This document shows, piece by piece, positions 11,069-54,932 of a DNA stretch of 64,000 bases. Origin of the DNA: Candidatus Campbellbacteria bacterium GW2011_OD1_34_28 (GTDB lineage Bacteria; Patescibacteriota; Minisyncoccia; Phycocordibacterales; UBA12079). Position 1 is the first letter of the stretch; every line of letters begins with the position of its first letter. The notes beneath the pieces were generated by a model, which was not told where the DNA came from, searched no databases, and was given only the letters and a program-made list of their open reading frames with translations. A program made the translations under genes and the position numbers. The stretch covers positions 274,685 to 338,684 of the forward strand of contig CP011215.1 of NCBI GenBank assembly GCA_001029775.1. Direction: 5' to 3'.

Positions 11069-11077
11069 TTTTTGCTT

Positions 11078-11470: not shown

Positions 11471-11551
11471 GTTTATAAATACCGTCTAATAAGGACGGTA
11501 TTTTTAATTTTAGTCTTTATTATATTGACCATAAGTGATATATTTAATTTT

Positions 11552-13924
11552 ATGAACGAATCAGAAACACGAGCAGAATATATAGATCCAAAGCTTAAAG
11601 AGGCTGGTTGGGGTGAGATGGAAGACTCTAAAATTTTGAGAGAGTTTGTTTTTACTGATGGAAAAATTCAAGCTGGTGGAATTCGTGGGAAACAAGAAAT
11701 CGCTGATTATATTTTGGTTTATAAAAATGTAAAATTGGCTGTAATTGAGGCAAAAAAAGAGGGTCTATATGCGACTGAGGGAGTAGCCCAAGCCAAAACT
11801 TATGCTCAAAAATTGAATATTAAATATACTTATTCAACCAATGGTAAGGAAATTTATGAAATTTCAATGGGTGGTGGTTGTGAAGATTATGTTGATAAAT
11901 TTCCGACTCCTGAAGAATTATGGAACAAAACTTTTTCAGACCAGAACGAATGGAAAGACAAATTTAATCAAATTTTGTTTGAAGACGGAGGTGGTAAAAG
12001 ACCAAGATATTATCAAGAAAACGCTATCAATAAAACTCTTGATGCCATTGCAGAAGAGAAAAACAGAATCCTTCTAACTCTTGCAACAGGAACAGGAAAA
12101 ACATTTATTGCTTTTCAAATTGTTTGGAAACTTTTTCAATCACGATGGAATTTAAACAGGGATGGGGCTAGGCGACCGAGAATCTTATTTTTGGCGGACA
12201 GAAATATTTTGGCCGACCAAGCTTTTAATGCTTTTTCCTCTTTTCCTGATGATGTTAAAGTTCGCATCAATCCATTGGATATTCGGAGACATGGTGGAGT
12301 ACCGATGAGTGGAAGTGTTTTCTTTACTATTTTTCAAACTTTTATGAGCGGGTCAAATAATACTCCTTATTTCGGAGAATATCCGAAAGATTTTTTTGAT
12401 TTAATCATTATCGATGAGTGTCATAGGGGCGGGGCTAATGATGAAAGTAATTGGCGAGGAATTTTGGAATATTTTTCACCTGCTGTGCAAATTGGTTTGA
12501 CTGCTACCCCTAAAAGAAAAGATAATATTGATACTTATAAATATTTTGGTGAACCGATTTATACTTATTCTCTCAAAGAGGGTGTGAGCGACGGTTTTTT
12601 GACACCATTTAAAGTAAAAAGAATTCAAACTACTTTAGATGATTATGTTTATACATCTGACGATGAAATTATTGAGGGCGAAGTGGAAGAGGGAAAAGTT
12701 TATGAAGAGCCGGATTTTAATAAAATTATTGTTATCAAAGAGCGCGAAGCTAAAAGAGTGCGAGTTGTTTTGGATGAAATAGATCAAAATGAAAAAACTA
12801 TTATTTTTTGTGCTACTCAGGATCATGCTGCAGCGGTGCGAGATTTAATAAATCAAATGAAAGAAAGTACTGACCCGAGTTATTGTGTTCGTGTGACGGC
12901 AAACGATGGAGCTAGGGGAGAACAAGCTTTGCGAGAATTCCAAGATAATGAAAAAACTATTCCTACTATTTTGACGACCTCACAAAAACTTTCTACTGGC
13001 GTTGATGCTAGAAATGTCAGAAATATTGTGTTGATGCGACCAGTAAATTCTATGGTGGAATTTAAACAAATTGTAGGTCGTGGAACAAGACTTTTTGACG
13101 GTAAAGAGTTTTTTACAATTTATGATTTCGTAGATGCGTATAAGCATTTTTCAGATCCTGAATGGGATGGCGAGCCGATTGAGGAGGTTTGTTCAAAATG
13201 CGAGCAAAATCCTTGTGTCTGTGAAGTAAAACCACCCAAAGAATGTTCTGTTTGTGGACAACGTCCTTGCGTATGTGAAAAACCATCTAAAATATGTTCT
13301 GTGTGTGGAAAAGATCCTTGCGAGTGTGAAAATCCGCCAAAAAGAAAATTGAAAATAAAATTAAGAGACGGAAAGGAAAGAGAAATTCAACATATGATCT
13401 CAACTTCTTTTTGGGGAGCTAATGGAAGACCTCTTTCGTCAGAAGAATTTATAACTAAAATATTTGGTGTGTTACCAGATTTATTTAAGAATGAGGAAGA
13501 ATTAAGGAAAATATGGTCAAATCCAGTAACAAGAAAAGAGTTTCTTGAAAGGTTGTTTGATTTAGGGATTGATTTAGAGCAATTAGATAATATTAAAAAA
13601 GTAGTTAATGCAGAAAATTGTGATTTATTTGATGTGCTTTCTTACCTTGCGTATAGTAAGCCATTGATTACTAGAGAGGAAAGAATTGATAAAACTAAAG
13701 AAAATATTTTTGAAGGAGTTGATGAAAAAAATAGAGAATTCTTAGATTTTGTTATTTCAAAATATAAAGAAAAAGGAGTTGAAGAGTTGGGTGAGGAAAA
13801 ATTACCAATTTTATTAAACTTAAAATATAACTCTCCTGCTGACGCTATAAGTATTCTTGGTGATGTTAATTTAATCCGTTCTACATTTTTTGATTTTCAA
13901 AAAAGACTATACACAAAAATATAA
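11552..13924 (+). CDS. hsdR: Type I restriction enzyme R subunit (EcoEI-like, short form)
   Basis: HSDR_N nuclease (EYIDPKL...), SF2 helicase motifs (LATGTGKT, DECHRG), EcoEI_R_C-like C-terminus. Contains a 3x tandem Cys-rich repeat at 13190-13345. Confidence 0.85.
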   Translation: MNESETRAEYIDPKLKEAGWGEMEDSKILREFVFTDGKIQAGGIRGKQEIADYILVYKNVKLAVIEAKKEGLYATEGVAQAKTYAQKLNIKYTYSTNGKEIYEISMGGGCEDYVDKFPTPEELWNKTFSDQNEWKDKFNQILFEDGGGKRPRYYQENAINKTLDAIAEEKNRILLTLATGTGKTFIAFQIVWKLFQSRWNLNRDGARRPRILFLADRNILADQAFNAFSSFPDDVKVRINPLDIRRHGGVPMSGSVFFTIFQTFMSGSNNTPYFGEYPKDFFDLIIIDECHRGGANDESNWRGILEYFSPAVQIGLTATPKRKDNIDTYKYFGEPIYTYSLKEGVSDGFLTPFKVKRIQTTLDDYVYTSDDEIIEGEVEEGKVYEEPDFNKIIVIKEREAKRVRVVLDEIDQNEKTIIFCATQDHAAAVRDLINQMKESTDPSYCVRVTANDGARGEQALREFQDNEKTIPTILTTSQKLSTGVDARNVRNIVLMRPVNSMVEFKQIVGRGTRLFDGKEFFTIYDFVDAYKHFSDPEWDGEPIEEVCSKCEQNPCVCEVKPPKECSVCGQRPCVCEKPSKICSVCGKDPCECENPPKRKLKIKLRDGKEREIQHMISTSFWGANGRPLSSEEFITKIFGVLPDLFKNEEELRKIWSNPVTRKEFLERLFDLGIDLEQLDNIKKVVNAENCDLFDVLSYLAYSKPLITREERIDKTKENIFEGVDEKNREFLDFVISKYKEKGVEELGEEKLPILLNLKYNSPADAISILGDVNLIRSTFFDFQKRLYTKI

Positions 13925-14315: not shown

Positions 14316-14753
14316 TTATTTTCTATAAACTAAAAAATGAGGTAATTTGTCCATATCTTTATATACAAACATTTCATAATTTGCTCGCCTAGCAGTTTTT
14401 GAAAGTTTGTAATTTGAAAGGTTCTTTTTTGGAACAAAAGGATAAAATTTTATTTCTTGTTTTTCTTCTCCCTTCTCAGACCATTTAAAATTTAAAAACA
14501 AAGACGGTGTCATGTACCCTGATTTTAAAACTTTGTTCATAATTTGCCATCCAGCACCAAAAACAACAGATTTTGGTTTACTTTGGTTTGTTTTAACTTG
14601 AGCACGAAAAGAACATCCTGTGCACTGAACATCATAAAGAGGATAGTTTGGAGGAAGTTTCATTAACATCTTCCCACAATTTGGACATGGAACAATATTG
14701 ACGATTTCTTGTTCGCCAGAATTACCAGATTCTTTTTTACTTTTTTTTAGCAT
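14316..14753 (-). CDS. Hypothetical Zn-ribbon protein
   Basis: CPNC...CTGC; no further motif recognised. Confidence 0.4.
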   Translation of the reverse strand: MLKKSKKESGNSGEQEIVNIVPCPNCGKMLMKLPPNYPLYDVQCTGCSFRAQVKTNQSKPKSVVFGAGWQIMNKVLKSGYMTPSLFLNFKWSEKGEEKQEIKFYPFVPKKNLSNYKLSKTARRANYEMFVYKDMDKLPHFLVYRK

Positions 14754-31616: not shown

Positions 31617-32621
31617 ATGAGAAATCTGTTGGTTGTTCCGCCGTCGTCTGAGATTTTGCCGGACGATCTTGGTCTGGCACAGAGGATTGAATACACCGGT
31701 CGGATATGTTACAAAAGCGAAGATAAAATCACGCCTGATTCATCAGCCGGTTTTTGTCGGGACATGACAGGCCACAAACACAATTCTGTTCTTGAAATGG
31801 CCGTTCGGAGCTACTGGTTTAACATCAATTCTTACCCGTATATGAACGAGATTCTTAAATCAATCCCGAAATACCTCATCATTGATGAGGTTGGCATCGG
31901 AGAATGGTTTATAACAGGAAGTGTGCGGGCATTTCGTGAGATGTTTATGTGGTTTCCGGATAACGCGATTTTTCAGGCGATTGCATTTGATATCAACAAA
32001 TCGCACCCGTATTTTTTTGAAGACCTCAAGAAGATTCTCCCTGAATCAGCCCCAGCGAATGTTTCTTATCGTCAGATTCCCCTTGAGGAAATTGATCAAA
32101 TGTCCACAACAATTCAGGCGCGGCATCGTCATGTCGCGGTAAAGTTTATCGTTAATCGTGCCGTGACACACGAGATCGTTCGCCACCGTCCCTGCGCTTT
32201 TCTTCAGGAGAGCCAGCGTTACTGTCGTTACGGTAGTGGCAAATTCGGCGACAGGGTTACCTTTATCAAGCCGATGTTTTTCAAAGAGGACAGCGAAGGT
32301 TATCGTCTGTGGGAGCAGGCGATGCTGGAGACCGAGAGGATTTATCTTGACCTCGTTAACATGAAGGACGAGAACGGAAAAAATCTTTATACGGCTCAGG
32401 CCGCTCGTACGGTTCTTCCAAACTCGTGTAAGACCGAACTTTTTTTGTATGCCCCTCTGACAGAGTGGCATCACATTTTGCACATGCGTACCAGCAAAGC
32501 GGCAGAACCCTCTATGAGAGAAGTGATGGTTCCGCTTCAGCAAGAGTTCATCACACGCTGGCCCAACCAGAATTTCGGCGAACCTCTTCGGATGCCGGAA
32601 GGCCATGTGGTTCAAAGGTAA
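31617..32621 (+). CDS. thyX: FAD-dependent thymidylate synthase ThyX-like (long form, visibly higher GC than its neighbours)
   Basis: ThyX signature RHRPCAFLQESQRY (RHR-x7-S-x-RY), HNSVLEMA; AAAGGAGAGG RBS. Confidence 0.65.
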   Translation: MRNLLVVPPSSEILPDDLGLAQRIEYTGRICYKSEDKITPDSSAGFCRDMTGHKHNSVLEMAVRSYWFNINSYPYMNEILKSIPKYLIIDEVGIGEWFITGSVRAFREMFMWFPDNAIFQAIAFDINKSHPYFFEDLKKILPESAPANVSYRQIPLEEIDQMSTTIQARHRHVAVKFIVNRAVTHEIVRHRPCAFLQESQRYCRYGSGKFGDRVTFIKPMFFKEDSEGYRLWEQAMLETERIYLDLVNMKDENGKNLYTAQAARTVLPNSCKTELFLYAPLTEWHHILHMRTSKAAEPSMREVMVPLQQEFITRWPNQNFGEPLRMPEGHVVQR

Positions 32622-32723: not shown

Positions 32724-34424
32724 ATGATTAAGAATGAGTTGGAAAAAGTAATAAAGTCCGCTGTGTCCGAGTTGGGTATAGAAGCAGGGAAGGTTCATCT
32801 GGAACACCCTGTTGATTTAAAAATGGGTGATTATTCTACTAATGTGGCGATGGTTTATGCAAAACAGATAGGACAGAATCCTCGCGAACTTGCTGAAAAA
32901 ATTGTCGAAAGAATTAAGGCAATTCCAACAGCAACCGGGTTGCTGTTAGGCGTGGAGGTGGCGGGTGCTGGGTTTATAAATTTTTATTTAAAGTCAGAGT
33001 TTTTTGCTGACTCTGTAAAAGATGTTTTAGAAAAAAAAGATGATTACGGAAAAAATGAAAAGTTGAAAGGTAAAAAAATGATGGTGGAATACACCGACCC
33101 AAATCCTTTCAAAGAAATTCATATCGGACATCTAATGACCAATGCTATTGGAGAATCTATTGCAAGAATTATTTCTGCTCAGGGAGCGCAGGTTATTCGT
33201 GCAAACTACCAAGGTGATGTAGGAATGCATGTTGCCAAAGCGGTTTATGGACTTTTGAAATTGGGATACGACGGTTCAAAGATAGGCGAGCTGGCGAGTG
33301 CTTATGCATATGGTGCAAAAGATTTTGATGAAAATAGAAAAGAAATAACCGAAATAAATAAAAAAATTTATGAAAGAAGTGATGAAAAAATAAATGCTCT
33401 TTATGATATTGGTAGAGAAGCAAGTTTGCGTTATTTTGAAGTAATTTATAAAAAATTGGGAATGTTTCCTACAAAACAAGGTAAACATTTTGATGAATAT
33501 TTTTTTGAGAGTGAAACAGCACCGATTGGAAAAGAATTTGTTAAAGGAAATATAGGAAAAGTTTTTAACGAGAGCGAAGGCGCTGTAATCTTTGAGGGAG
33601 AAAAATATGGATTGCATACCCGTGTCTTTTTGAATTCCGAAGGTATTCCTACTTATGAAGCAAAGGATTTGGGACTTATAAAAACAAAGTTTGAAAAGTA
33701 TCCCGACTTGGATTTGTCTATTTCAATAACAGGAAATGAAGTAAACGAATATTTTAAGGTGATGTTAAAATCTGCTGAATTGATAGAACCACAATTGGCA
33801 GAAAAAACAAAACACATTTCACATGGAATGTTGCGATTGCCAGAAGGAAAAATGTCGTCACGAACAGGAGATGTAATAAGTGCCGTTGGATTGATGGCGG
33901 AAATAGAAAAAGAAGTCCAAAAGAGAATGGAAAAGAAAGAAAGTCTTGATTATGATAAGACTGTCGAACAAGTAACATTGTCTGCGATCAAATATTCTAT
34001 TTTGAAATCTGCCAACGGAAAAGATGTTGTCTTTGATATGAATAAATCCGTATCTATTGAAGGAAACTCTGGACCTTATTTGCAATACACAAATGCGAGA
34101 ATAAATTCTATTTTGGAAAAAGCAAAACAAGAAAATATAAAAAGTTGGGAGCAAGGCACCCAAATAGAAATATCCGATGTGGAGAAAATTCTTTATCGTT
34201 TTCCAGAGGTGGTTGAGAGAGTGGGTGAAGAATACGAACCTCATTATATTGCGGTATATTTGTCAGAATTAGCGCAAGCATTTAACTCTTATTATTCCGC
34301 AAACAAAATTGTAGATAGCGGAGATATTAATTCTCCTTATCGTACAGCTCTTGCTCAAGCAGTAGGGCAGGTGATTAAAAATGGGCTGTATCTTTTGGGA
34401 ATTGAGTCTCCTGAGAAGATGTAA
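32724..34424 (+). CDS. argS: Arginine--tRNA ligase
   Basis: HIGH (HIGHLMT), C-terminal anticodon-binding DALA-like domain. Confidence 0.9.
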   Translation: MIKNELEKVIKSAVSELGIEAGKVHLEHPVDLKMGDYSTNVAMVYAKQIGQNPRELAEKIVERIKAIPTATGLLLGVEVAGAGFINFYLKSEFFADSVKDVLEKKDDYGKNEKLKGKKMMVEYTDPNPFKEIHIGHLMTNAIGESIARIISAQGAQVIRANYQGDVGMHVAKAVYGLLKLGYDGSKIGELASAYAYGAKDFDENRKEITEINKKIYERSDEKINALYDIGREASLRYFEVIYKKLGMFPTKQGKHFDEYFFESETAPIGKEFVKGNIGKVFNESEGAVIFEGEKYGLHTRVFLNSEGIPTYEAKDLGLIKTKFEKYPDLDLSISITGNEVNEYFKVMLKSAELIEPQLAEKTKHISHGMLRLPEGKMSSRTGDVISAVGLMAEIEKEVQKRMEKKESLDYDKTVEQVTLSAIKYSILKSANGKDVVFDMNKSVSIEGNSGPYLQYTNARINSILEKAKQENIKSWEQGTQIEISDVEKILYRFPEVVERVGEEYEPHYIAVYLSELAQAFNSYYSANKIVDSGDINSPYRTALAQAVGQVIKNGLYLLGIESPEKM

Positions 34425-34463
34425 TATAGTATGATTAATTATTAATTTAAATTATTTTTTAAA

Positions 34464-34925
34464 ATGGAAAACAAAAATTATTATTGGATTATTTTAGTTT
34501 TATTAGTGTTAGTGGTTGGAGGTTTTTGGTATTATCAAACATACCAAGTCAATCCAAAATCAGAAGATGAATCTTCTGAAGTAAAGATAATCGATTCTTC
34601 TGACACCATTTCTAATAATGTAAGCACTTCTACCGTTCAGATTTATGGTGAGGAATATGAAAAATTTTTAATTGGTACATGGCAGAATTCTGCGAATATT
34701 TTGGATATGACAGTAATAAAACAAGACGGAACAATTGAAAATATTTATGATGGTGATTTGGTTAGTTCTGGAACTTGGAAGACAGAAGGATATCATTTAA
34801 AAATTACCACAAACGGACAAGATAAAACCTACACAGTTTTATTTGCGGGTAATGAGAGGTTGCAACTGGCTCCTTCTCCAGCAGGAACAGGGAATAATTT
34901 GAATTTTACAAGAGTTATTAAATAA
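34464..34925 (+). CDS. Membrane-anchored hypothetical protein
   Basis: N-terminal TM helix, beta-rich remainder. Confidence 0.4.
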   Translation: MENKNYYWIILVLLVLVVGGFWYYQTYQVNPKSEDESSEVKIIDSSDTISNNVSTSTVQIYGEEYEKFLIGTWQNSANILDMTVIKQDGTIENIYDGDLVSSGTWKTEGYHLKITTNGQDKTYTVLFAGNERLQLAPSPAGTGNNLNFTRVIK

Positions 34926-35185
34926 ACTTAAAAGATAAAAGATGACCACAGCAAGACCGTGGTCATTTTTTGTTTGACTTTATGTTGTGTTTGAGTATTA
35001 TGTACACATAAATGTTCTTGATTAAATCTTGAAAAGAGATGCATTTGTAAGTATTTTCCGGCGTGGAAGACATTGGTTTTCCGGAAAACCAGAGTCAAAA
35101 CTTTCAGATGTTTAGCGAACGAACCGGTGTGAGGACACTGTCGCTGGTCTTTTCTCTCCTCATCTCTTTTCATCCTTGTTGTGTT

Positions 35186-35264
35186 GGGGCGTAGCTCAAT
35201 CTCTCTCTTGGCAGAGCGCCTGTTTGAGAACAGGAAGATGGTCGGTTCGAATCCGTCCGCTCCA
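35186..35264 (+). tRNA. tRNA-like element / probable degenerate tRNA (Ala-type GGGGC acceptor with G3:U70)
   Basis: GGGGCGTAGCTCAA[tctctctctt]GGCAGAGCGCCTGTTTGAGAACAGG...GGTTCGAATCC...CGCTCCA. The D-loop is ~16 nt, the T-stem has a mismatch and the anticodon loop reads GAG. Followed by a terminator at 35275-35300. Confidence 0.3.
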
Positions 35265-35299
35265 ATCAAAAATAAAAGTCCGCCTGTGGCGGACTTTTT

Positions 35300-36022
35300 C
35301 TATTGGTGGAGATTTTCTCTCCGCTCAGAAATATAGGCTCTCTTGATAGCGGTGTATTGGTCCACCGATCCATCCATAATACCTTTGTATGTTGGAGAAA
35401 AATCATGCCATAGATCGATAGAATCGGCTGATTGTAAAGAAAATCTTTCTACACTGCCGGTGTATTTTACTGGTGAAATAAAATATTCACCAAAATTACC
35501 AAAAGAACTGCGGAAAGTTCGGGGTCCAAATAATGGCCAGATGATGTAAACACCTTCGCCGACGCCCCAATAGGCAAGGCCTTGGTCGATGTCTTCTTCA
35601 TCTGGCGGGTTAAATTTTACTGGTCGAAAAATTCCGCCGATTCCAAAAAAAGAATTGTTAATTGTTTCATTCATTGTGAGACCGACAATTTCTCCTTTTC
35701 CTTGCATTGCTGCTCCAAAAAGACGAGTTGGAAATGAAAGGTTGTAAAAGAAATTTCCGATACAGTCTCGGACAGGCTCCGGAATTTTTTCGTAAAGATT
35801 TTTGTTGATTGGTTCCAGTACCCACATATAGAATTTGTCGTTGACGTAAAATGTGATTCTGTTCAGTGGTTCAAAAGGGTCCCATACTTCACACACTGTT
35901 TGCTCTTCGTCTGAAAGAGGGTCTTCATAAAAAACGCACCCTTCCGGTTTTTGAGCACAACCGATTTGAGTTGTAACCAATAATAAAAAAATTGACGAAA
36001 GAACCCATTCTTTTTTCTGCAT
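35300..36022 (-). CDS. MlaA/VacJ-family lipoprotein
   Basis: Signal peptide plus lipobox (QIGC), then DPFEPLNR...NFFYNLSFP...MQGKG...TMNETINNSFFGIGG, a close match to the MlaA domain; GC higher than the genome background. Confidence 0.65.
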   Translation of the reverse strand: MQKKEWVLSSIFLLLVTTQIGCAQKPEGCVFYEDPLSDEEQTVCEVWDPFEPLNRITFYVNDKFYMWVLEPINKNLYEKIPEPVRDCIGNFFYNLSFPTRLFGAAMQGKGEIVGLTMNETINNSFFGIGGIFRPVKFNPPDEEDIDQGLAYWGVGEGVYIIWPLFGPRTFRSSFGNFGEYFISPVKYTGSVERFSLQSADSIDLWHDFSPTYKGIMDGSVDQYTAIKRAYISERRENLHQ

Positions 36023-36125
36023 TTGCCCCTCCTTTTTTGTCGATGATAGACGGTTCTAGTATTTAGCGTATAGTAGTTTTGAATAATCTCAAAGGGGATA
36101 AATTTTGTTTAGATATTAAAAACAT

Positions 36126-36154
36126 TTGACATTTTTCTGTTTAGAATCTATCCT
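36126..36154 (+). promoter_or_regulatory. Sigma70-like promoter (TTGACA, 17 nt spacer, TATCCT) driving the small-ORF/rSAM operon
   Basis: ttgacatttttctgtttagaatctatcct about 55 bp upstream of the AGGAGG RBS. Confidence 0.45.
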
Positions 36155-36208
36155 TTTAAAAGGACTAGGTACTATTACGAAAATCTTTTAACCAGAGGAG
36201 GCGGTATC

Positions 36209-36310
36209 ATGAAGAGAAATGTGGCAAAAAAGAGCGGGAAGAAAATACCCCGTTCGAAAAAAAAGATTCGTGTGCGTATCGGCAAGGGTAGTTGCAGTAT
36301 TTGCGACTGA
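36209..36310 (+). CDS. 33-aa basic Cys-containing peptide (candidate rSAM substrate/precursor): MKRNVAKKSGKKIPRSKKKIRVRIGKGSCSICD
   Basis: Perfect AGGAGG RBS 7 nt upstream of the ATG; not in the ORF track (<60 aa); followed by a hairpin/terminator and the rSAM-SPASM gene. Confidence 0.4.
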   Translation: MKRNVAKKSGKKIPRSKKKIRVRIGKGSCSICD

Positions 36311-36320
36311 TCTCGGCAAA

Positions 36321-36347
36321 CAAGGAGGGCTCGCCCTCCTTGTTTTC
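36321..36347 (+). terminator. Inter-cistronic hairpin/attenuator (caaggaggg-ctcg-ccctccttg + TTTTC)
   Basis: 9-bp perfect stem then a T-run, between the small ORF and the rSAM gene. Confidence 0.5.
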
Positions 36348-36369
36348 AAATCAAGACAAGGGAGAAAAA

Positions 36370-37455
36370 ATGGATTGCAATACTGAAACACCAACATTAG
36401 ATGTTGAAATAGGTGATACTGTTTACGCAATTGAATTTGGACAGATTCAGATTGAAATTACCGGACTTTGTAATATGCATTGTCAGCATTGCAGGGCGTC
36501 GAATCAGCCTGTCGAGGAAATGAGTATTGATAATATCGTAAAAATTATCAAATTTGCTCGGCAGTTCAGCCCCAATTACAAAGAAATTGTCGTTTCAGGC
36601 GGTGAGCCAACATTGCATAGAGATTTTTCTGGCGTGTTGAAAGCTGTGAGAAAAAATGGCGGTGATTTTGTCACCCTTACTACAAACGGTTCCATTTTTA
36701 ATAAAACACATCTCGACTTGATCGAAAGCCTGGATTTTAAGCGCTTTGTTTTATCGGTCAGTATCGACAGTCTTGACGCCAAAGAGCACGACACTTTTCG
36801 TGGGTATCAGGGAGCGTTTGATAAAGCCGTTCGATCTTTGTCGTTAATTGCAGAAAGTAAACTTCCCAACATCGTTGCCTCGATGCGTTCTACCATCAAG
36901 GCTACACAAATCGACGATATGGAAGCTATGGCAGAATATGCTCAAAAAATAGGTTGTCAAAGAGTTAGTTTCTCTGCTATTCATCCGGCTGGTCGTGCCA
37001 TCTTGCGTCCTGATTTGTGGATGACCTCTGAGCAGAAACTCGCTTTTCTCAAAAACATCTACGCATTGAAGGAAAAATTTCCCGAGATGAACATCACGAC
37101 CAACGACCCTCTTAAATGTTTGTTGCGTGGCAAGAGTGATGTCGGAGGAGAAGACGAACTAGTCTTTGATGGTTGCGGAGCTGCGGCGATTACTTTCAAT
37201 GTAAATGCTGACGGGGTAATGACCCCTTGTGCGCTTCTGGATGTTCCGATGATGAACACGAAAAATCTTTCCATTGAGGAAATCACCGAACAGTATCGAA
37301 AAAACTGGATTGTGAGGAATATGCTCACTATGAATTTCGACGGTAAGTGTGGAACTTGCCCGACGAAATATCAGTGCGGTGGTTGTCGTGCCAGAGCATT
37401 GATTCAAAACGGCGACATGTTTGGCGAAGATCCTCATTGTTGGATTACACCGTAA
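36370..37455 (+). CDS. Radical SAM enzyme with C-terminal SPASM domain (peptide-modifying maturase-like)
   Basis: CNMHCQHC rSAM cluster, GGEPTL, C-terminal CGAAA...C...CGTCPTKYQCGGCRARA SPASM cysteines. Confidence 0.75.
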   Translation: MDCNTETPTLDVEIGDTVYAIEFGQIQIEITGLCNMHCQHCRASNQPVEEMSIDNIVKIIKFARQFSPNYKEIVVSGGEPTLHRDFSGVLKAVRKNGGDFVTLTTNGSIFNKTHLDLIESLDFKRFVLSVSIDSLDAKEHDTFRGYQGAFDKAVRSLSLIAESKLPNIVASMRSTIKATQIDDMEAMAEYAQKIGCQRVSFSAIHPAGRAILRPDLWMTSEQKLAFLKNIYALKEKFPEMNITTNDPLKCLLRGKSDVGGEDELVFDGCGAAAITFNVNADGVMTPCALLDVPMMNTKNLSIEEITEQYRKNWIVRNMLTMNFDGKCGTCPTKYQCGGCRARALIQNGDMFGEDPHCWITP

Positions 37456-37460
37456 TTTTT

Positions 37461-37496
37461 GCAAGCCACCCTTTGGATAAGGGGTGGCTTTTTTGT
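37461..37496 (+). terminator. Intrinsic terminator after the rSAM gene
   Basis: gcaagccaccc-tttggataa-ggggtggcttttttg. Confidence 0.6.
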
Positions 37497-37524
37497 TTGC
37501 CCGTTTTAGTGTATTATTTTTTCT

Positions 37525-40500
37525 ATGACTAACGAAAATAATATTAATAATAAATCTGAGACAGCCAAGAATGAAGAAAACATTATAAAGTTTTGGCAGG
37601 AGAACAAAATTTTTGAAAAATCCGTAGAGAAAGAAGCTCCGAACGGCGAGTTTACTTTTTATGACGGACCTCCTTTTGCTACCGGTCTTCCGCACTATGG
37701 GCATCTTTTGCCTGGGACGATGAAAGATATTATTCCTCGTTATCAAACAATGAAAGGCAAAAGAGTTAATCGTCGTTGGGGTTGGGATTGTCACGGTCTA
37801 CCGATTGAGAATTTGATTGAAGATGAATTGGGACTTAAAACAAAAAAAGATATTTTTGAACATGGAGTAGAAAAATTTAATCAGTCTGCAAAAGACAGCG
37901 TTCTTCGTTATGATGCTGATTGGAAAAAGATTATTCCAAGAACGGGAAGGTGGGTGGATATGTCGCACAGTTACAAGACTATGGACACGACCTATTCAGA
38001 AACTATTTGGTGGATTTTTAAAACTGTCTACGAAAAGAAATTAATTTATGAAGGACATAAAGCAATGCATTTGTGCCCTCGATGTGAAACAACACTTTCT
38101 AATTTTGAGGTTAATCAAGGGTACAAAGATATAAAAGATATTTCGGTTACTGCAAAATTTGAAGTTGAACATACCAATAGTACGAATGATACTAATGATA
38201 CGAATAATACAAATACTAAGACTTATATTTTAGCTTGGACTACTACACCATGGACTTTGCCTGGTAATGTTGCTTTGGCTGTCGGAAAAGATATCGATTA
38301 TGTAGAAGTAGAAGTTTTGCCAGAATCAGATATTAGAGAAGTTGGAAACACGGATTATAAAGTCCTTCCAATAGAATATTATATTTTAGCTAAAGAAAAA
38401 TTAGAAAGTGTTTTTGGGGGTCGTCGTTATAGCGTTAAGGAAGAATTTAAAGGATCAGAGCTTGTTGGAAAATCTTATAAACCGGTTTTTGATTATTATC
38501 AAAACGAAGATTTAGAAAATAAAGAAAACGGTTGGAAAATTTACGGGGCGGATTTTGTGACGACCGAGGACGGAACGGGAATTGTTCACATCGCTCCGGC
38601 TTTTGGATCGGACGATATGGAATTGGGAAAGAAAGAAAATTTGCCGTTTATTCAGCATGTCACAGTGGACGGAAAATTTAAACCTGAAGTAAAAGACTTT
38701 GTCGGTTTGACAGTAAAGCCAAAAGACACAAAAGAAGATGCCAGTGCGCACCTGAGAACAGATATTGAGATTGTCAGATGGCTACAAGAACACGACAAGT
38801 TTTTCTCGAAGGAAAATTTGGTCCACTCCTATCCTCATTGTTGGAGATGCAATACACCGCTTTTGAATTATGCGACATCATCGTGGTTTTTGAAGGTGAC
38901 CGATTTGAAGGATAAATTGTTGGAGGTAAATAGCAAAATTCACTGGGTGCCGGAACACATCAGAGACGGAAGATTTGGAAAATGGTTGGAAGGGGCGAGA
39001 GATTGGGCGATTTCCAGAACGCGTTTTTGGGGTGCACCTTTACCAGTTTGGAAATGTAAAGAATGTGACAATGTTCATGTACTTGGTTCTATTGAAGACC
39101 TTAAACAAAAAACAAGAGGCACTAACAAATATTTTGTAATGCGACACGGCGAAGCGGAAAACAATACTTTGAATGTTTCCAGCACGAAAGCAGAAAATCC
39201 CCATCACTTAACTGACAAAGGAAAAGAACAGGTATTGGGTGCGATTGCAAAATTGAAAGAAAAGAAAATTGATTTTATTATCTCGTCTCCTTTTGTTAGG
39301 ACAAAAGAGACGACTGAAATGATTGCGAAAGAAATCGGTATCAACGAAATAATTTTTGATGACAGATTGATAGAGGCACAGGTAGGTGATTTTGAAGGAA
39401 AAGATATTTCCGAATACAGAAATTATACGAAATCTTTGGAAGAAAAATTTTTGCAAACTCCGCCTAACGGAGAAAGTTTGACCGAGTTAAAAAACAGAGT
39501 AGGGGATTTTATTTACGAGATTGATAAAAAATATTCCGACAAAAATATTTTGATTGTTACTCATGAATATCCAGCTTGGTTGTTGATTGCCGTGACAAAA
39601 GGACTAAATGGCACAGAGGCGGTTGAATTGAAACACAAAGAAAATCTTTTTGAAAATGCCGACATAAAAGAATTGGATTTTGCACCAATTTCTCATAACA
39701 AAAATTATGAGTCTGATTTGCATATGCCATATATAGACGAGATAAAATTTGCTTGTGAATGTGGAGGAGAGATGGAAAGAATCAAAGAAGTTTTTGATTG
39801 TTGGTTTGAATCTGGCGCGATGCCTTATGCTTCGAATCATTATCCTTTTGAAAATCTGGACAAATTTAATCCTGAAAAAGGTATTGGTTTTCCGGCTGAT
39901 TTTATTGCTGAAGGAACCGATCAGACCAGAGGGTGGTTTTATACATCATTGGTTTTGTCGACCGCATTGTTTGAAAAAGCGTCTTTCCAAAATGTAATTG
40001 TAAACGGAATGATAATGGCAGAGGACGGCAAAAAAATGTCAAAGAGTCTCAGAAATTATCCCGATATTTCGTATATGTTGGATAAATACGGAGCGGATGC
40101 TCTAAGATACTATATTATTTCTTCTCCAGCTGTTCGTGCCGAGGATTTAAATTTTTCTGAAAAGGGAGTAGATGAGATTTTGAAAAAAATTATTTTGAAA
40201 ACAAAAAATGTTTTGTCTTTTTATGAATTGTATAAAGACGAAATCTCTGCAGAGGTTAAACCTCTGCAAAGCGACAATGTTCTTGATAGATGGATTATTG
40301 CTCGTTTGAATCAATTAATTGTAGAAGTTACGACAGGATTGGACAATTACGAATTAGATAGAGCATCCAGACCGATTGTTGATTTTGTCGAAGATCTTTC
40401 TACTTGGTATATTCGTCGTTCAAGAGATAGGTTTAAGGGGGAAGACGAAAAAGACAAGAATTTTGCAATAGAAACGACAGGTTTTGTTTTGAAAGAATTA

Positions 40501-41115
40501 ACAAAAGTAATGGCTCCGTTTATGCCGTTTGTCGCCGAAGAGGTTTATCAAAGAGTAAAAGGTAATGAAGGAAAAGAAAGTGTCCATTTAGAAAACTGGT
40601 CAGAAGTTGAAAAAGTGGACGAAAAGATTTTGGAAGAAATGAAAAGGGTGAGAGATATTGTGTCGCTGGCTTTGGAGGCGAGAGCAAAGACGGGGATAAA
40701 GGTGAGACAACCGCTTCAAAAGCTGACAGCTTACAGCCAACAGCCTACAGCAATGGACGAAGAATTGGTTGGTGTCATTAAAGATGAGGTGAATGTGAAG
40801 GATGTGGTATTTGAAAAAGGAGATGAAGAGAAGGTTGAATTAGATATAGAAATCACCCCGGAACTAAAAGCCGAAGGGCAATATAGAGAACTGCTTCGAA
40901 ATATTCAGAGGATGAGAAAAGATGCAAACCTTGTGCCGAACGATTTGGTAGAGTTGGAAGTAGAAACAGATGAAGTAGGAAAAGAATTGATAGAAAAATT
41001 TGCCGAAGATTTGAAACGTACGGCTGGATTAGAAAAAATAGAATTTGAGGGTGTCGATGACGGAGAAAATATAAAAATCGACAATCTAACTTTTAAAATA
41101 AAATTAGAAAAATAA
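37525..41115 (+). CDS. ileS: Isoleucine--tRNA ligase (type 2) carrying an inserted histidine-phosphatase (PGAM-like) domain
   Basis: HYGHLLP (HIGH), KMSKSLRN, WxCxxC zinc region, editing domain. Residues encoded ~39100-39700 read VMRHGEAENN...LTDKGKEQ...FIISSPFVRTKET...NGESLTEL...ILIVTHEYPAW, a PGAM branch-1 signature. Confidence 0.85.
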   Translation: MTNENNINNKSETAKNEENIIKFWQENKIFEKSVEKEAPNGEFTFYDGPPFATGLPHYGHLLPGTMKDIIPRYQTMKGKRVNRRWGWDCHGLPIENLIEDELGLKTKKDIFEHGVEKFNQSAKDSVLRYDADWKKIIPRTGRWVDMSHSYKTMDTTYSETIWWIFKTVYEKKLIYEGHKAMHLCPRCETTLSNFEVNQGYKDIKDISVTAKFEVEHTNSTNDTNDTNNTNTKTYILAWTTTPWTLPGNVALAVGKDIDYVEVEVLPESDIREVGNTDYKVLPIEYYILAKEKLESVFGGRRYSVKEEFKGSELVGKSYKPVFDYYQNEDLENKENGWKIYGADFVTTEDGTGIVHIAPAFGSDDMELGKKENLPFIQHVTVDGKFKPEVKDFVGLTVKPKDTKEDASAHLRTDIEIVRWLQEHDKFFSKENLVHSYPHCWRCNTPLLNYATSSWFLKVTDLKDKLLEVNSKIHWVPEHIRDGRFGKWLEGARDWAISRTRFWGAPLPVWKCKECDNVHVLGSIEDLKQKTRGTNKYFVMRHGEAENNTLNVSSTKAENPHHLTDKGKEQVLGAIAKLKEKKIDFIISSPFVRTKETTEMIAKEIGINEIIFDDRLIEAQVGDFEGKDISEYRNYTKSLEEKFLQTPPNGESLTELKNRVGDFIYEIDKKYSDKNILIVTHEYPAWLLIAVTKGLNGTEAVELKHKENLFENADIKELDFAPISHNKNYESDLHMPYIDEIKFACECGGEMERIKEVFDCWFESGAMPYASNHYPFENLDKFNPEKGIGFPADFIAEGTDQTRGWFYTSLVLSTALFEKASFQNVIVNGMIMAEDGKKMSKSLRNYPDISYMLDKYGADALRYYIISSPAVRAEDLNFSEKGVDEILKKIILKTKNVLSFYELYKDEISAEVKPLQSDNVLDRWIIARLNQLIVEVTTGLDNYELDRASRPIVDFVEDLSTWYIRRSRDRFKGEDEKDKNFAIETTGFVLKELTKVMAPFMPFVAEEVYQRVKGNEGKESVHLENWSEVEKVDEKILEEMKRVRDIVSLALEARAKTGIKVRQPLQKLTAYSQQPTAMDEELVGVIKDEVNVKDVVFEKGDEEKVELDIEITPELKAEGQYRELLRNIQRMRKDANLVPNDLVELEVETDEVGKELIEKFAEDLKRTAGLEKIEFEGVDDGENIKIDNLTFKIKLEK

Positions 41116-50666: not shown

Positions 50667-53600
50667 ATGAATAAAATTAATTACGGAATGATCCTTGTGA
50701 TTATTGTTGCTTTTCTCTTTGTAGTCACATCTGATTTTTCAAATAAAACAAATAAAAACGAACAACTTGCTCTCGCTGCACCCGTTTCTGGTGGAGAAAC
50801 TGTCTCTGTTATACGACCAAGTTGTAGTGGTTATGAGCCTGGCACTTGTTTTACATCTCTTGCTAGTTGGGAAAGTAACTTTGGAGGAATAGATTTTGGT
50901 ACTTGTACTAGTGGTGATTTGGTGTGTGCTAATACAAGCGCCGTAGCAAAGATAGAAGGAAGCTGGACCACTGCTGACAATGCCATAATAATTAGTGGCT
51001 GGACAACATCTTCCTCAAATTATATCAAGATCTATACAGCATCAGATGCAAGGCATAGCGGAGTTTGGAGCAATAGTAAATATAGGATTTCTTCTACTGC
51101 CTCATCTATTGATGTGAGAGAGAAGAATGTGATTATTGATGGTTTGCAGTTGGTTTTGACAGGTTCTAATGGTTGGAAAAATGGCGTACGCTATGAGCCT
51201 GAAGAGAGCCTTATTTCTGGAGGAACACACATTGTTTCAAATTGTATTATAAAATCTACAAACACATCTACTTCGGGAATTAGTGGTATTAATGCAAGCA
51301 ATTGGGATTCAGAAAGTTCGGTGAGTTTTTATAACAATATTGTTTATGGGTTTTCTAATTATGGTATTTATTTAAAATTGCTTAATTCTTCTAATGCTTT
51401 TATTTATAACAATACTGTTTATGGAATAAACGGCAACGGAATAGAGGTGGGTAATAATTTTGCTTTGTTAAAAAATAATATTGTTCAAAATTCTTTGAAA
51501 AGTTATGTGGGCACAGCAAAAACAGGCTCTTCAAACAATATTTCTTCCGACGCTACAGCTCCTGGTTCTAATTCAAAAATAAATCAGACAGTGTCTTTTG
51601 TTTCGACAAGTGCGGGAAGTGAAGACTTCCACCTTTCTTCTTCTGACACCTCAGCAAGAGACGCTGGCATAAGTTTGAGCGGAGATAGCGGACTGTCTTT
51701 TTCAACGGATATAGATGGATCAGCAAGAAGTGGTGCTTGGGATATTGGAGCCGATGAACAAAGCGGTTCTGCTCTTCCTCCAGAACCTCCAACTTCCGAC
51801 ACAACCCCTCCAACAGTCACCAGTCCATCACCAAGTGGAACATTATCATCTGGGACAACATCGGTGACACTTTCGGTAACAACAAACGAAACATCTGTTT
51901 GTAAATATTCCACAATCGCCAACACTGCATATACATCAATGACAAACACAATGTCAACGAGCGGAAATACACACACAAAAATAATAAGTAGCTTAACAAA
52001 TGGAACAACTTACAATTATTACGTAAAGTGTAGAGACACAGCAGGGAACACGACAGCTTCTGATACTACAATTAGTTTTGGTGTGGCGAGTGTTGTTACA
52101 CCACCCTCAAGCTCATCTTTTAAACCAGTGGCAAGATTTGATGTCGTTCCATATCAAAGAATCGAATATGGCAATTCATTTAAAATAGGAGTAGTGGCTT
52201 TTTCCAAGCCGGGAATTCAAAGAGTTGAATTTAGTGCCACCGGTCAGGGCTATTCCGGTGGAACAAAAACTGTCACTTCAATGTCTCTCAATAGTACTAG
52301 CGGAGTATGGGAATATTGGACGACATTTTCTGCCAGTGAATTTACAGGCAATGGGGCTATCACTATTACCGCCTTGGTTAGAGATAATCAAGGGAATACT
52401 CGAAATCTTACCCTTCCGATGTTTGCATATGGTGCAAGTGCTTTTACGCCTGTTAAGATTTGGATAGACAACACTGTGGGAAATGATAGCACTTGTGCAA
52501 TTAATAAAGAGACGACTCCATGTAAAACTCTTTCTTCGGCAGTAACAAAAGTTAAGACCGCAAACGGCGGAGTGTGTGATGGAGCTGTTTTCTATTATCA
52601 AGAAGGAACTTATTCCAACTCAGCTTCTGTCACCGTCACAACTTCAGCTCAGTGGGCGACTATAACAAAAGATCCAGATGCCGATAAAAACAAAGTGATC
52701 CTTAACGGAGCTCCAAGTAGCGGAAGAATTTATGGTGGTTATGTTAAGTTCGATTCTGTTACGATGAAAAGTTTAGGAGCTTCTTCATATGTAGCTGATC
52801 CGGATCGTATTTGGACTAACAATTCTAGAAAGATTGGATCTGGTCGTTGGAATTCCAATTCAAATCCTATACAAATCAGTGATCCAGATAACCATTGGAG
52901 CACAAATGATTATACCTATGATGTAGATTTCGCTTATCAACGTGCCGCACTCGTAAGGGGGGCAACCATTGAAAAAGTGGGAAATGATACTTTTCAGAAT
53001 ACTCGAATGGTAGTTAACAGCACTATGAATGATTCTGATCACGGTACTAACTATGCTACACACAATGATGGTTATCAGGTATTTAATACAAATGAAGCGT
53101 CACCACCAGCAGACAATAGAATCATCTATAATTACAAAGCAACCAATATGCATTATCAGGGTATTTTCATGCGGTCCGATTTGGGGACTGCTACCAATAA
53201 TGCTTTTGTTAATGTTGTAATGGAAATGCGTGATCCAGCAAATCTAAATGAAGCTAACAACTATCCTCACTCTGCATTCGCGGCATATCATAATTGGGAC
53301 CACCTGATAATTTGGAACAGCTCATTCTTGTGGGGAAATTCTAGCATTTATACTTCTGGGCTTACAAATTCGTCTATTGTTGGAAATGTTTTCTTTTCTC
53401 TTGAAAATACAGAAACATCAGCTGGAAATCCAGTTGTTCCATCGATGGCACCTGGAAACGCTGGCAACAATGAAGTAATTCACAATCACTTTGAGTGGGT
53501 GTACGGAGTATCTCCATCTTGTTCTTATCTTGGAAGGTCTTCCGACACTCTTTATAATCCTGATAAAATTTGCCCAAGGTATTATGCAAAACGTCCTGAT

Positions 53601-54932
53601 TCTGATGCGGGGGTATCTTCTACCGTAGGCGGAGGCACAATTAACCTAGACAATCAATCCGCGTCCTTTCTTCGTCCGGTCGGCAGTATTTTGATTGGCA
53701 GATTCACATCTCGCGTTCCAGTCGATGTTAATAATGTAATCAGAGGTGCCTTGTCTGATGTGGGGGCTGTTGAACAAAGCGGTTCTTCTCTTCCTCCAGA
53801 GCCTCCAGCTTCCGACACAATCCCTCCAACAGTCACCAGTCCATCACCAAGTGGAACATTATCATCTGGAACAACATCGGTAACACTTTCAGTAACAACA
53901 AACGAAACATCTGTTTGTAAATATTCCACAACCGCCAACACTGCATATACATCAATGACAAACACAATGTCAGCGAGCGGAAATACACACACAAAAACAA
54001 TAAGTAGCTTAACAAACGGGACAACTTACAATTATTACGTAAAGTGTAGAGACACAGCAGGGAACACGACAGCTTCTGATACTACAATTAATTTCAATGT
54101 AGGAACTTCGAGCTCGCTTCCTGATACACAAGCTCCGACTGGTGGAACTATTTTAATTAACAATGGTTCTGACACAACCAATTCAGTAGATGTTATTTTG
54201 ACACTAAGTGCGAATGACAATGTTGGAGTAACTCAGATGAGATTTTCAAATAACAATTTGATATATTCAGAATGGGAGAATTACAGCACAACTAAAAATT
54301 GGATTTTGCCTTCTGGAGACGGAACAAAAACTATTTATGTTAAATACAGAGATTCCGCAGGAAACACTTCCTCTTCTGCGAGCGATTCAATTACTTACAC
54401 AACTTCTACTACACCACCTGTTAGTGGAGGAGGAGGTGGAAGCGGCGGAGGTGGAGGTAGTACCGGTGGAAGTAGCGGCGGAGGTGGAAGTATCAGTTAT
54501 CCCGGTCAAACAAATCCTACAAATGTTCCTGCTCCTACAAATATAATTACAGTTTTCACTCAAAATCTTTCTTTTGGATCAGAGAATGATATGGTAAGAA
54601 AATTGCAAGAATTTTTGGCAAGAGACAGAACAATCTATCCTGAAGGAATTATCAGTGGTTTTTATGGAAACATGACGCTTAAAGCGATACAAAGATTCCA
54701 ATCAAAATACAATATCGTTACTTCGGGAACTCCAGAAACTACTGGTTATGGAAGTGTTGGACCAAAGACAAGAATAAAATTGAATGAAATATATGGTGGT
54801 TCTCCAATAACAGCCGCATCAAATATTGCCAGATTAACCTTTGAACAAATTAATGCCATTGTTAACTTGCTAATTTCTTTCGGAGCAGACAATGCTGTTG
54901 TGGAAAATGTAAGAAACATTTTGAATCGGTGA
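50667..54932 (+). CDS. Large surface protein: signal/TM anchor, parallel beta-helix, two near-identical Fn3/Ig-like modules, Gly-rich linker, C-terminal peptidoglycan-binding domain
   Basis: PbH1-like NNxVYG repeats; two ~108-aa modules (VTSPSPSGTLSSGTTSVTLSVTTNETSVCKYS...YYVKCRDTAGNTT) ~97% identical at DNA level (51755-52077 vs 53773-54100); GGGGGSGGGGGS linker; PG_binding_1-like LQEFL...FQSKYNI...GPKT. Confidence 0.7.
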   Translation: MNKINYGMILVIIVAFLFVVTSDFSNKTNKNEQLALAAPVSGGETVSVIRPSCSGYEPGTCFTSLASWESNFGGIDFGTCTSGDLVCANTSAVAKIEGSWTTADNAIIISGWTTSSSNYIKIYTASDARHSGVWSNSKYRISSTASSIDVREKNVIIDGLQLVLTGSNGWKNGVRYEPEESLISGGTHIVSNCIIKSTNTSTSGISGINASNWDSESSVSFYNNIVYGFSNYGIYLKLLNSSNAFIYNNTVYGINGNGIEVGNNFALLKNNIVQNSLKSYVGTAKTGSSNNISSDATAPGSNSKINQTVSFVSTSAGSEDFHLSSSDTSARDAGISLSGDSGLSFSTDIDGSARSGAWDIGADEQSGSALPPEPPTSDTTPPTVTSPSPSGTLSSGTTSVTLSVTTNETSVCKYSTIANTAYTSMTNTMSTSGNTHTKIISSLTNGTTYNYYVKCRDTAGNTTASDTTISFGVASVVTPPSSSSFKPVARFDVVPYQRIEYGNSFKIGVVAFSKPGIQRVEFSATGQGYSGGTKTVTSMSLNSTSGVWEYWTTFSASEFTGNGAITITALVRDNQGNTRNLTLPMFAYGASAFTPVKIWIDNTVGNDSTCAINKETTPCKTLSSAVTKVKTANGGVCDGAVFYYQEGTYSNSASVTVTTSAQWATITKDPDADKNKVILNGAPSSGRIYGGYVKFDSVTMKSLGASSYVADPDRIWTNNSRKIGSGRWNSNSNPIQISDPDNHWSTNDYTYDVDFAYQRAALVRGATIEKVGNDTFQNTRMVVNSTMNDSDHGTNYATHNDGYQVFNTNEASPPADNRIIYNYKATNMHYQGIFMRSDLGTATNNAFVNVVMEMRDPANLNEANNYPHSAFAAYHNWDHLIIWNSSFLWGNSSIYTSGLTNSSIVGNVFFSLENTETSAGNPVVPSMAPGNAGNNEVIHNHFEWVYGVSPSCSYLGRSSDTLYNPDKICPRYYAKRPDSDAGVSSTVGGGTINLDNQSASFLRPVGSILIGRFTSRVPVDVNNVIRGALSDVGAVEQSGSSLPPEPPASDTIPPTVTSPSPSGTLSSGTTSVTLSVTTNETSVCKYSTTANTAYTSMTNTMSASGNTHTKTISSLTNGTTYNYYVKCRDTAGNTTASDTTINFNVGTSSSLPDTQAPTGGTILINNGSDTTNSVDVILTLSANDNVGVTQMRFSNNNLIYSEWENYSTTKNWILPSGDGTKTIYVKYRDSAGNTSSSASDSITYTTSTTPPVSGGGGGSGGGGGSTGGSSGGGGSISYPGQTNPTNVPAPTNIITVFTQNLSFGSENDMVRKLQEFLARDRTIYPEGIISGFYGNMTLKAIQRFQSKYNIVTSGTPETTGYGSVGPKTRIKLNEIYGGSPITAASNIARLTFEQINAIVNLLISFGADNAVVENVRNILNR

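Follow-up and report, generated by a model that had tools for sequence, protein, structure and literature searches.

The window analysed in this study is a stretch of 64,000 nucleotides from Candidatus Campbellbacteria bacterium GW2011_OD1_34_28 (contig CP011215.1, positions 274,685 to 338,684), a bacterium of the candidate phyla radiation (CPR, Patescibacteria). The element under discussion is a 3.1 kb segment of it (34425-37524; coordinates are those of the window unless a comparison locus is named), which lies between the genes for arginyl-tRNA synthetase (ArgRS, 32724-34424, plus strand) and isoleucyl-tRNA synthetase (IleRS, 37525-41115, plus strand). These two genes form the left and right anchors of the segment, and the gene order across the region reads Tmk, ThyX, ArgRS, a small protein termed p153, a non-coding stretch of 374 nt, an MlaA/VacJ-family lipoprotein (MlaA), a small peptide, a radical S-adenosylmethionine (radical SAM) enzyme of the SPASM type, IleRS and RecO. 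Probably, these 3.1 kb constitute a clade-specific mosaic accessory segment, composed of four independent units and situated in a recurrently variable ArgRS-IleRS-RecO junction.

Comparison loci are referred to by L numbers. Scanning one genome for each GTDB species on the basis of ArgRS yielded 40 loci. Among these, the string ArgRS-IleRS-RecO is conserved in Paceibacteria, with synteny in 25+ Paceibacteria loci and Pfam hits for ArgRS at the matching locus. ArgRS is followed directly by IleRS, with a gap of about 15-125 nt, in L007, L008, L009, L015, L017, L019 and L036, and IleRS lies within 240 nt in L042; L007 is the nearest outgroup, its IleRS being 65% identical. In five further loci (L014, L016, L022, L023 and L025) a free-standing histidine-phosphatase (His_Phos) gene stands between ArgRS and IleRS. 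Synteny comparison found none of p153, MlaA and the radical SAM gene in the outgroup loci with either type of junction. Since ArgRS is succeeded directly, or after His_Phos, by IleRS in so many other Paceibacteria, 34425-37524 is a clade-specific insertion relative to the lineage. The same junction carries unrelated genes in other lineages (L010, L012, L020, L021, L018 and L027), which marks it as a recurrently variable spot. The arrangement in the window is not an assembly chimera, as the MlaA protein was found in identical gene context on 24 independently assembled contigs. The window IleRS itself contains an inserted histidine-phosphatase domain at residues ~533-718 (PF00300, His_Phos_1), the same domain that is free-standing in the five loci above, and this suggests that the internal domain is a captured neighbouring gene.

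Three of the comparison loci share parts of the segment with the window. Among the loci compared, p153 is present only in the window, L064, L005 and L003, and a predicted structured small RNA (sRNA) is conserved in the same four. In the window the sRNA is followed on its 3' side by one tRNA-like element, and both MlaA and the peptide/radical SAM cassette are present. L005 (ArgRS 84% at the amino-acid level) has an MlaA that is 64% identical and also the radical SAM gene, and carries no tRNA-like element, its terminator coming directly after the sRNA. L003 (Candidatus Pacebacteria GCA_028689435.1; ArgRS 76% at the amino-acid level) has two tRNA-like elements flanking the sRNA and an MlaA that is 72% identical and separated from IleRS by a spacer of 121 nt, and it has no radical SAM gene. 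L064, whose flanks are 92-97% identical in nucleotide sequence, retains p153 and the sRNA with an L005-type terminator, and lacks both the tRNA-like element and the radical SAM gene.

All that is left of MlaA in L064 is about 45 nt of its 3' end, fused to the promoter of IleRS at a GGCTTTTTT that both sides have in common. The sequence is the 3' half of the terminator of the radical SAM operon in the window (37463-37490, plus strand) and is the right-hand microhomology of a deletion of about 2.15 kb, which removed MlaA, the peptide and the radical SAM gene together. The MlaA remnant identifies the absence in L064 as a deletion and not as an empty site. This deletion, taken with the syntenic position of MlaA in the diverged genomes, indicates that MlaA pre-dates their divergence, has since been inherited vertically or recombined, and is dispensable. 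The radical SAM cassette and the tRNA-like modules, by the same comparison, come and go independently. The first-pass annotation had treated 34930-37500 as one foreign islet, and this unity is lost, since the radical SAM gene is absent in L003, which keeps MlaA, and the parts vary independently; the clade-specific segment also starts further left than that islet and takes in the low-GC p153 gene. When the window was compared with L064 (32724-35173 and 37486-40712), nucleotide identity was seen to jump from block to block between 83% and 97-99%, which, along with the L005-type terminator in L064, indicates recombination mosaicism among related strains.

The first component of the segment, p153 (34464-34925, plus strand), is clade-specific, lies inside the insertion by synteny and is predicted to comprise an N-terminal membrane helix and a small all-beta domain. 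Its GC content at third codon positions (GC3) is native-like, at 0.23. No Pfam family was recognised for it, a lipocalin-like hit at an E-value of 0.28 being only a weak hint, and the single-sequence AlphaFold2 model was of low confidence (predicted local distance difference test, pLDDT, 46) and too poor for a structure search. A hairpin terminator on the 3' side of the gene (34942-34966) is conserved in L005 and L064.

The sRNA occupies 35029-35175 on the plus strand (~145 nt) and remains unclassified; its recognition draws on minimum free energy (MFE), covariation and a promoter. The promoter-like site, TTGACT-16 nt-TATTAT (34974-35001, plus strand), shows 10/12 consensus matches and is identical in L005 and L064. 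The predicted fold is a three-way junction with a closing stem of 12 bp (35030-35041 with 35161-35172), and its MFE has a z-score of -3.0. In the alignment, which holds three distinct sequences, 9 of the 44 pairs have changed on both sides and 94.7% of the cells are paired. This pairing statistic was reached by none of 500 shuffles, and slid controls fall to 43-55% paired. The closing stem itself shows a double compensatory change, GAAAAGAGAUG/CAUCUCUUUUC against GAAAAGGAAUG/CAUUCCUUUUC.

A search of 34900-35320 against Rfam at E<=10 returned tRNA as the sole match, with no 6S, SRP, tmRNA, Y-RNA, T-box or riboswitch. Pattern scans for the sRNA core gave 26 hits in metagenomes, among which only L064 was real, and one chance hit in viral sequences; a covariance model run on 40 sources, 582 kb in all, detected no additional copy. 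In GenBank the assembly GCA_003489565.1 has an 81-aa hypothetical protein on the minus strand at 34928-35173, overlying the sRNA. Coding on this strand (34928-35269, a 113-aa open reading frame (ORF) with no Pfam match) was considered and rejected owing to 1-nt indels in the relatives: the 81-aa frame is shifted in L005 and cut to 28 aa in L003. As the antisense frame is broken or shortened in relatives, the conservation is at the RNA level, and the GenBank gene call is most likely spurious, the true feature being, on the sequence evidence, the structured sRNA.

Convergent to the sRNA lies the gene for MlaA (35300-36022, minus strand; 240 aa), and the family assignment made in the first-pass annotation is borne out. 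The protein matches PF04333 with an E-value of 3.7e-45 (154 bits, where the cutoff is 25) over profile positions 2-194 of 195, and has a signal peptide with a lipobox, MQKKEWVLSSIFLLLVTTQIGC^AQ, placing the lipidated Cys at position 22; the x-G-C of the lipobox, as read from sequence, is kept in 7/7 CPR-type homologues. Its AlphaFold2 model is of good quality (pLDDT 89.9, predicted template modelling score 0.80), and a Foldseek search of the PDB returned MlaA chains for all nine top hits (probability 1.0, template modelling (TM) score 0.70-0.83), the next hit having E>2. The predicted fold superposes on solved MlaA, with a TM score of 0.82 and a root-mean-square deviation of 2.6-2.9 Å for 5NUO, 5NUR and 8I8R. 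With MlaA of the Mla systems of E. coli, K. pneumoniae and S. marcescens (5NUO/5NUP/5NUR, 8I8R) the window protein shares the full-length Pfam domain, the lipoprotein signal with its Cys, and the motifs DPxEPxNR, NFxxNL, LQGK and GPxxxR. Nevertheless, the CPR-type proteins are shorter (234-241 aa, against 250-300 aa for known MlaA) and the window protein has an extra conserved Cys-rich N-terminal segment (GC..P.GCVFY.DPL...EQ..CEV). With 50.9 bits for the NCBIfam equivalog NF011672 ('phospholipid-binding lipoprotein MlaA'), for which the cutoff is 375, the protein is a member of the family and not an orthologue of enterobacterial MlaA.

The host differs as well. CPR bacteria are presumed to have a single membrane and are thought to be without an outer membrane. 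No Pfam domain of the MCE, MlaE, MlaC or STAS type was found among the ~60 ORFs of the 64-kb window, so that, in contrast to the Mla system, MlaB-F/MCE genes are missing within 64 kb, and the porin partner is presumably absent too. A word-indexed search of 5.8 billion proteins recovered only seven CPR-type MlaA sequences (38-100% identity, 234-241 aa, all with the lipobox Cys), the next matches being 29-37% identical and belonging by name to Desulfobulbaceae, Desulfobacteraceae, Desulfuromonadales, Nitrospirota and Proteobacteria. Similarly, phmmer against 1.84 billion representatives gave 6091 members of the MlaA family (clusters at 50% identity), and only four of these fell in the short CPR-type group, whose scores of 173-203 bits are followed by a fall to 143 bits. 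In a neighbour-joining tree without support values, the CPR-type sequences are monophyletic and stand beside Desulfobacterota/Nitrospirota, away from Beta- and Alphaproteobacteria.

The first-pass annotation had called MlaA unexpected in a CPR-like genome, and the small number of CPR-type sequences supports that view, as does the report that MlaABC has a narrow distribution and is entirely missing from diderm Terrabacteria, the division to which CPR are assigned there (Grasekamp et al. 2023, PMC10665443). A search of the literature for a patescibacterial MlaA retrieved nothing relevant. Very probably, to judge from the tree and from the distribution of the family, this MlaA was anciently acquired from a diderm of the Desulfobacterota/Nitrospirota kind and is now an orphan. 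The protein is probably attached by a lipid anchor to the outside of the single membrane, where we infer that it handles phospholipids. CPR bacteria cannot synthesise their own lipids, and for this reason a role of MlaA in lipid scavenging is plausible; p153 could be its partner.

The peptide/radical SAM cassette is transcribed divergently from MlaA, as the gene and promoter positions confirm. It starts with a promoter-like site, TTGACA-17 nt-TATCCT (36126-36154, plus strand), which is conserved in L005, and encodes a precursor-type peptide of 33 aa (MKRNVAKKSGKKIPRSKKKIRVRIGKGSCSICD; 36209-36310, plus strand) and the radical SAM/SPASM enzyme of 361 aa (36370-37455, plus strand). The latter carries the motif CNMHCQHC and matches PF04055 with an E-value of 5e-21; the SPASM match (E 0.009) is below the gathering score, and the SPASM cysteine set was read in translation as CGAAA...PCALL...CGTCPTKYQCGGC...HCW, with CGTCPTKYQCGGC C-terminal. 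Between the two genes there is a hairpin with a 13-bp perfect stem and a U-tract (36318-36345, plus strand), which we interpret as an attenuator or a terminator of partial strength. In L074, L076 and L077 the peptide is likewise succeeded by an equivalent hairpin. As read from the sequence, a peptide with such a hairpin and U-tract shows the attenuator layout usual in operons for ribosomally synthesised and post-translationally modified peptides (RiPPs).

A peptide with the tail IG(K/E)(G/N)SCS(I/S)C stands directly upstream of the radical SAM gene in all seven distinct loci examined. The tail VRIGKGSCSICD (...IGKGSCSICD) is identical in the window, L005, L074, L076 and L077, with the variants VRIGKGSCSSCGD in L080 and KKVYIGENSCSICN in L079; the CX3D spacing seen here has Asp replaced by Asn in L079 and is altered in L080. 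The leader is strongly basic. Neither Pfam nor NCBIfam has a match for the peptide, and a protein-database search with the extended ORF of 46 aa gave none, such short genes evidently not being called in the protein database; literature on SPASM precursors in CPR and on the motif SCSICD offered nothing relevant. The enzyme has ~2000 homologues, 60-70% identical across CPR (57-99% among the best 120), with source names that include Moranbacteria, Magasanikbacteria, Paceibacterota and Patescibacteria. Its conservation exceeds that of ArgRS and IleRS among Paceibacteria (44-65%), and the cassette is CPR-native.

No NCBIfam equivalog claims the enzyme: it is below the cutoff of every one, the best being NirJ2 (144 bits against 500), and scores 80.8 bits with the PapB model, for which the cutoff is 340. 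With the PapB/SCIFF ranthipeptide and MftC/PqqE maturases it has in common the CxxxCxxC motif, the full SPASM Cys set and a short precursor directly upstream. The Cys-containing C-terminal core of the peptide with its CX3D spacing is reminiscent of PapB substrates, and the invariance of this core of MftA and PqqA. Unlike these types, the window enzyme falls below the trusted cutoffs, the leader is basic and the usual cassette partner, a methyltransferase, is missing. This methyltransferase of 154 aa follows the radical SAM gene elsewhere (convergent to it in L079), and a search of the window for it found none. Presumably, the target of modification by the enzyme is the C-terminal SCSxC core, the invariant part of the peptide.

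We also note that L074 (~290-430), L076 (~3725-3860) and L077 (~3575-3712) share a conserved structured 5' untranslated region (5' UTR) of ~110 nt between the TTGACA promoter and the ribosome-binding site of the peptide. It has apparently compensatory helices (GGAAATCCA/TGGATTTTC against GAAACTTAT/ATAAGTTTC; TTGGG/CCCAA against TTAGG/CCTAA) and no Rfam match in any of the three. It is absent from the window and L005; for the cassette it may represent a riboswitch or a leader.

How far base composition bears on the origin of these genes can now be considered. The GC content of 34930-37500 is indeed raised, at 41.3% against a window mean of 35.5%, a value reached at 0.5% of positions (windows of 2571 nt, standard deviation 2.4%). 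The first-pass figures of 42-45% against 32% were overstated, and two further patches, at ~30.4-33.4 kb (Tmk/ThyX) and ~51.5-54.2 kb, are equally high. Within the stretch GC is uneven, being 43.5% in the sRNA, 55.6% in the tRNA-like element, 39.8% in MlaA, 32.3% in the divergent promoter region and 42.8% in the radical SAM gene. The codon-usage comparison gives the radical SAM gene as a mild outlier in GC3 (0.42-0.43, z ~1.5), and MlaA as near background (0.344 against a window mean of 0.308 with standard deviation 0.079; z 0.46). The strongest GC3 outlier of the window is ThyX (0.52, z 2.7), which lies outside 34930-37500. The rise at the left edge comes from the ~145-nt structured sRNA, and the raised GC as a whole is the sum of three unrelated causes, namely a structured RNA, the slightly raised GC of MlaA and the intrinsically high GC of the radical SAM gene. 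This last gene also exceeds its neighbours in GC in L074 and L077, so its composition here is no evidence of foreign origin.

The ThyX gene (31617-32621; GC 47%) is an equally strong compositional outlier in L003 and L005. At the ThyX position L064 has instead a divergent ThyX-like protein of 454 aa with an RHR motif (3772-5136 of L064), and a NUDIX-like gene of 130 aa stands between ThyX and ArgRS in L003, L005 and L064, whereas the window is without it. The third GC peak is explained by a surface-type protein of 1421 aa (50667-54932) with Big_13/FN3-like repeats and a C-terminal PG_binding_1 domain, where the excess arises at second codon positions (GC2, 0.51) and not in GC3 (0.27).

These figures lend some support to an explanation in which the GC patch is evolutionarily meaningless and reflects amino-acid and RNA-structure constraints in native genes, with no horizontal transfer at all. 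The GC3 of MlaA is within background, the radical SAM gene is GC-rich in several unrelated CPR genomes, and structured RNAs are GC-rich throughout the window (tRNAs 40-64%). Yet none of the more distant Paceibacteria sampled has the segment at its ArgRS-IleRS junction, an MlaA is very seldom found outside diderms, and the CPR MlaA clade branches beside Desulfobacterota/Nitrospirota and not outside all MlaAs. On balance, an explanation without any transfer is unlikely, though it fares better than the two alternatives that centre on the tRNA-like element.

This element (35185-35265, plus strand) was correctly recognised at the outset as tRNA-like: it scores 40.1 bits with the Rfam tRNA model, whose gathering score is 29. 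Its 16-nt D-loop, imperfect T-stem (a U50-U64 mismatch) and own terminator were likewise confirmed. The terminator (35274-35298) is bidirectional, with an 11-bp stem and T-runs on both sides, and is common to the sRNA/tRNA-like unit and the convergent MlaA gene. The Ala-type G3:U70 pair of the first-pass annotation disappears once the register is set so that U8, A14 and the T-loop are retained; the acceptor stem then reads U1-A72, G2-C71, G3-C70 and G4:U69. The element retains the GG of the D-loop and a canonical T-loop, GGUUCGAAUCC, and has a 6-nt variable region and no encoded CCA. A two-piece or permuted tmRNA was also entertained and dropped, ARAGORN finding no tmRNA in the window.

Could the element be a genuine but unusual decoding tRNA, be it a class I GAG, a frameshift or a suppressor tRNA? 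Its score is above the Rfam gathering threshold, and with U8, A14, the D-loop GG and the T-loop it combines a 7-nt anticodon loop, UUGAGAA, that has U33 and A37. The same 40.1 bits are, however, the lowest tRNA score in the window, ARAGORN reports 'tRNA-???' with no isotype, and the long D-loop and the T-stem mismatch are unfavourable. The GAG loop is also redundant, since the window has a canonical class II tRNA-Leu(GAG) at 27148. Moreover, the element is absent from L005 and from the near-identical L064, and its positional homologue in L003 is a cloverleaf with a ~58-nt helix in place of the anticodon arm and no anticodon loop. Taken together, a decoding function is very unlikely.

On the 5' side of its sRNA, L003 has a second tRNA-like module, whose anticodon loop is of 8 nt. 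Both L003 modules (5676-5752 and 5408-5518, minus strand) encode a 3' CCA, in contrast to the genuine L003 tRNAs (His, Leu) and all five window tRNAs, which hints at a different origin or maturation route. Considering these homologues, the tRNA-like element is best read as a variable 3' module of the sRNA transcription unit that would be neither a decoder nor an attachment site. A structured RNA co-transcribed with a cloverleaf-like element is known from RNase P processing of the MALAT1/mascRNA type, from the tRNA-like domain of the bacterial YrlA Y-RNA and from sRNAs excised from tRNA operons. The present case is similar in this respect: the acceptor and T arms are kept, the anticodon arm is variable, and the L003 sRNA is bracketed by two modules. 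It differs in that neither sequence nor Rfam links it to those RNAs, that the module is dispensable, L005 and L064 being without it, that no Rsr/Ro gene is nearby and that RNA processing is putative. By analogy, we infer that the modules may serve as handles for processing of the RNase P/Z type or for stability, or may be decaying relics of tRNAs.

The remaining alternative, a single island recently integrated at a tRNA or tRNA-like attachment site, has in its favour the GC above background, the tRNA-like element near the left end of the GC rise and the lack of MlaA and the radical SAM gene in the close relative L064, but is highly improbable and on present data largely refuted, given that there is no integrase or recombinase gene between ArgRS and IleRS (the proteins of the segment are only p153, MlaA, the peptide and the radical SAM enzyme), no flanking direct repeats and no repeat of >=12 nt joining the tRNA-like element to the border at 37.4-37.6 kb, no tRNA found by ARAGORN between ArgRS and IleRS in any of the 21 outgroup loci scanned, a deletion in L064 as its MlaA 3' remnant attests, an MlaA that L003 and L005 have in the syntenic position at 64-72% amino-acid identity and that is near background in GC3, and components that vary independently. 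The proposed attachment site falls with it, as L005 keeps MlaA without the element. The likeness to tRNA-targeted islands is that of a raised-GC accessory segment beside a tRNA-shaped sequence, varying among close relatives; unlike them, the locus has no integrase, no attachment repeats and no tRNA at the empty site, L064 shows a microhomology deletion scar, and the tRNA-like element lies inside the segment and not at its border. From the horizontal acquisition put forward in the first-pass annotation, a lineage-specific segment with an MlaA of diderm type survives, whereas the radical SAM gene is CPR-native and the acquisition was not recent.

Under the favoured reading, that of a mosaic segment in a variable junction, the four units would be as follows. 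p153 would be a membrane-anchored protein with a beta domain. The sRNA would be a promoter-driven transcript of ~145 nt, here with a tRNA-shaped 3' module and a terminator. MlaA would have come from a diderm donor before the four sampled genomes diverged, with its composition now largely ameliorated, and would be a dispensable, lipid-anchored protein that extracts or transfers phospholipid at the outer face, possibly in lipid scavenging. The fourth unit would be the CPR-native peptide and radical SAM/SPASM cassette, gained or lost independently of MlaA and present here without the methyltransferase and the long 5' UTR.

Several points weigh against parts of this reading. With just three distinct sRNA sequences, the covariation is suggestive and short of conclusive, and the role of the tRNA-like module as a processing handle is argued by analogy. 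The donor of MlaA rests on the unsupported neighbour-joining tree with few named sequences, and as the partner search covered 64 kb of the genome only, MlaBCDEF could be encoded elsewhere. In addition, the GC3 of the radical SAM gene is 0.42 here and 0.32 in L005, so that in this strain recombination may have replaced the cassette more recently.

Elsewhere in the window, a type I restriction-modification operon (HsdM, HsdS, HsdR) at 6479-13924 is interrupted by other genes, namely a DUF4145 gene, an unassigned 260-aa ORF, a gene with a SocA/Panacea antitoxin domain and a 132-aa ORF, and a DpnI-like gene is found at 14316-14753.

Taken as an island, then, the locus is nothing out of the ordinary, a variable junction that owes its form to old transfer, to recombination and to deletion, and it illustrates that a tRNA-shaped sequence beside GC-rich accessory genes need not mark an integration site. 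The sRNA finding corrects a likely mis-annotation, that of the 81-aa 'hypothetical protein' in GenBank. The peptide/radical SAM system is CPR-wide with an invariant core and has no curated family, and its product may be a CPR-specific small molecule, either a cofactor derived from the peptide or a metal binder. An MlaA that is, as predicted, well folded and lipid-anchored in a CPR cell is an exception to the published distribution of MlaABC and a candidate for lipid acquisition or membrane remodelling; an episymbiont with a single membrane may have recruited it for use, perhaps together with p153, in drawing phospholipids out of a diderm host's membrane. That both should apply, the cassette making a CPR-specific product rather than a variable antimicrobial RiPP and the orphan MlaA being turned to host lipids, is a tentative proposal which we regard as possible but rather doubtful. 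If it were true, an sRNA with exchangeable tRNA-shaped ends would be a third novelty, and a clade-specific one.

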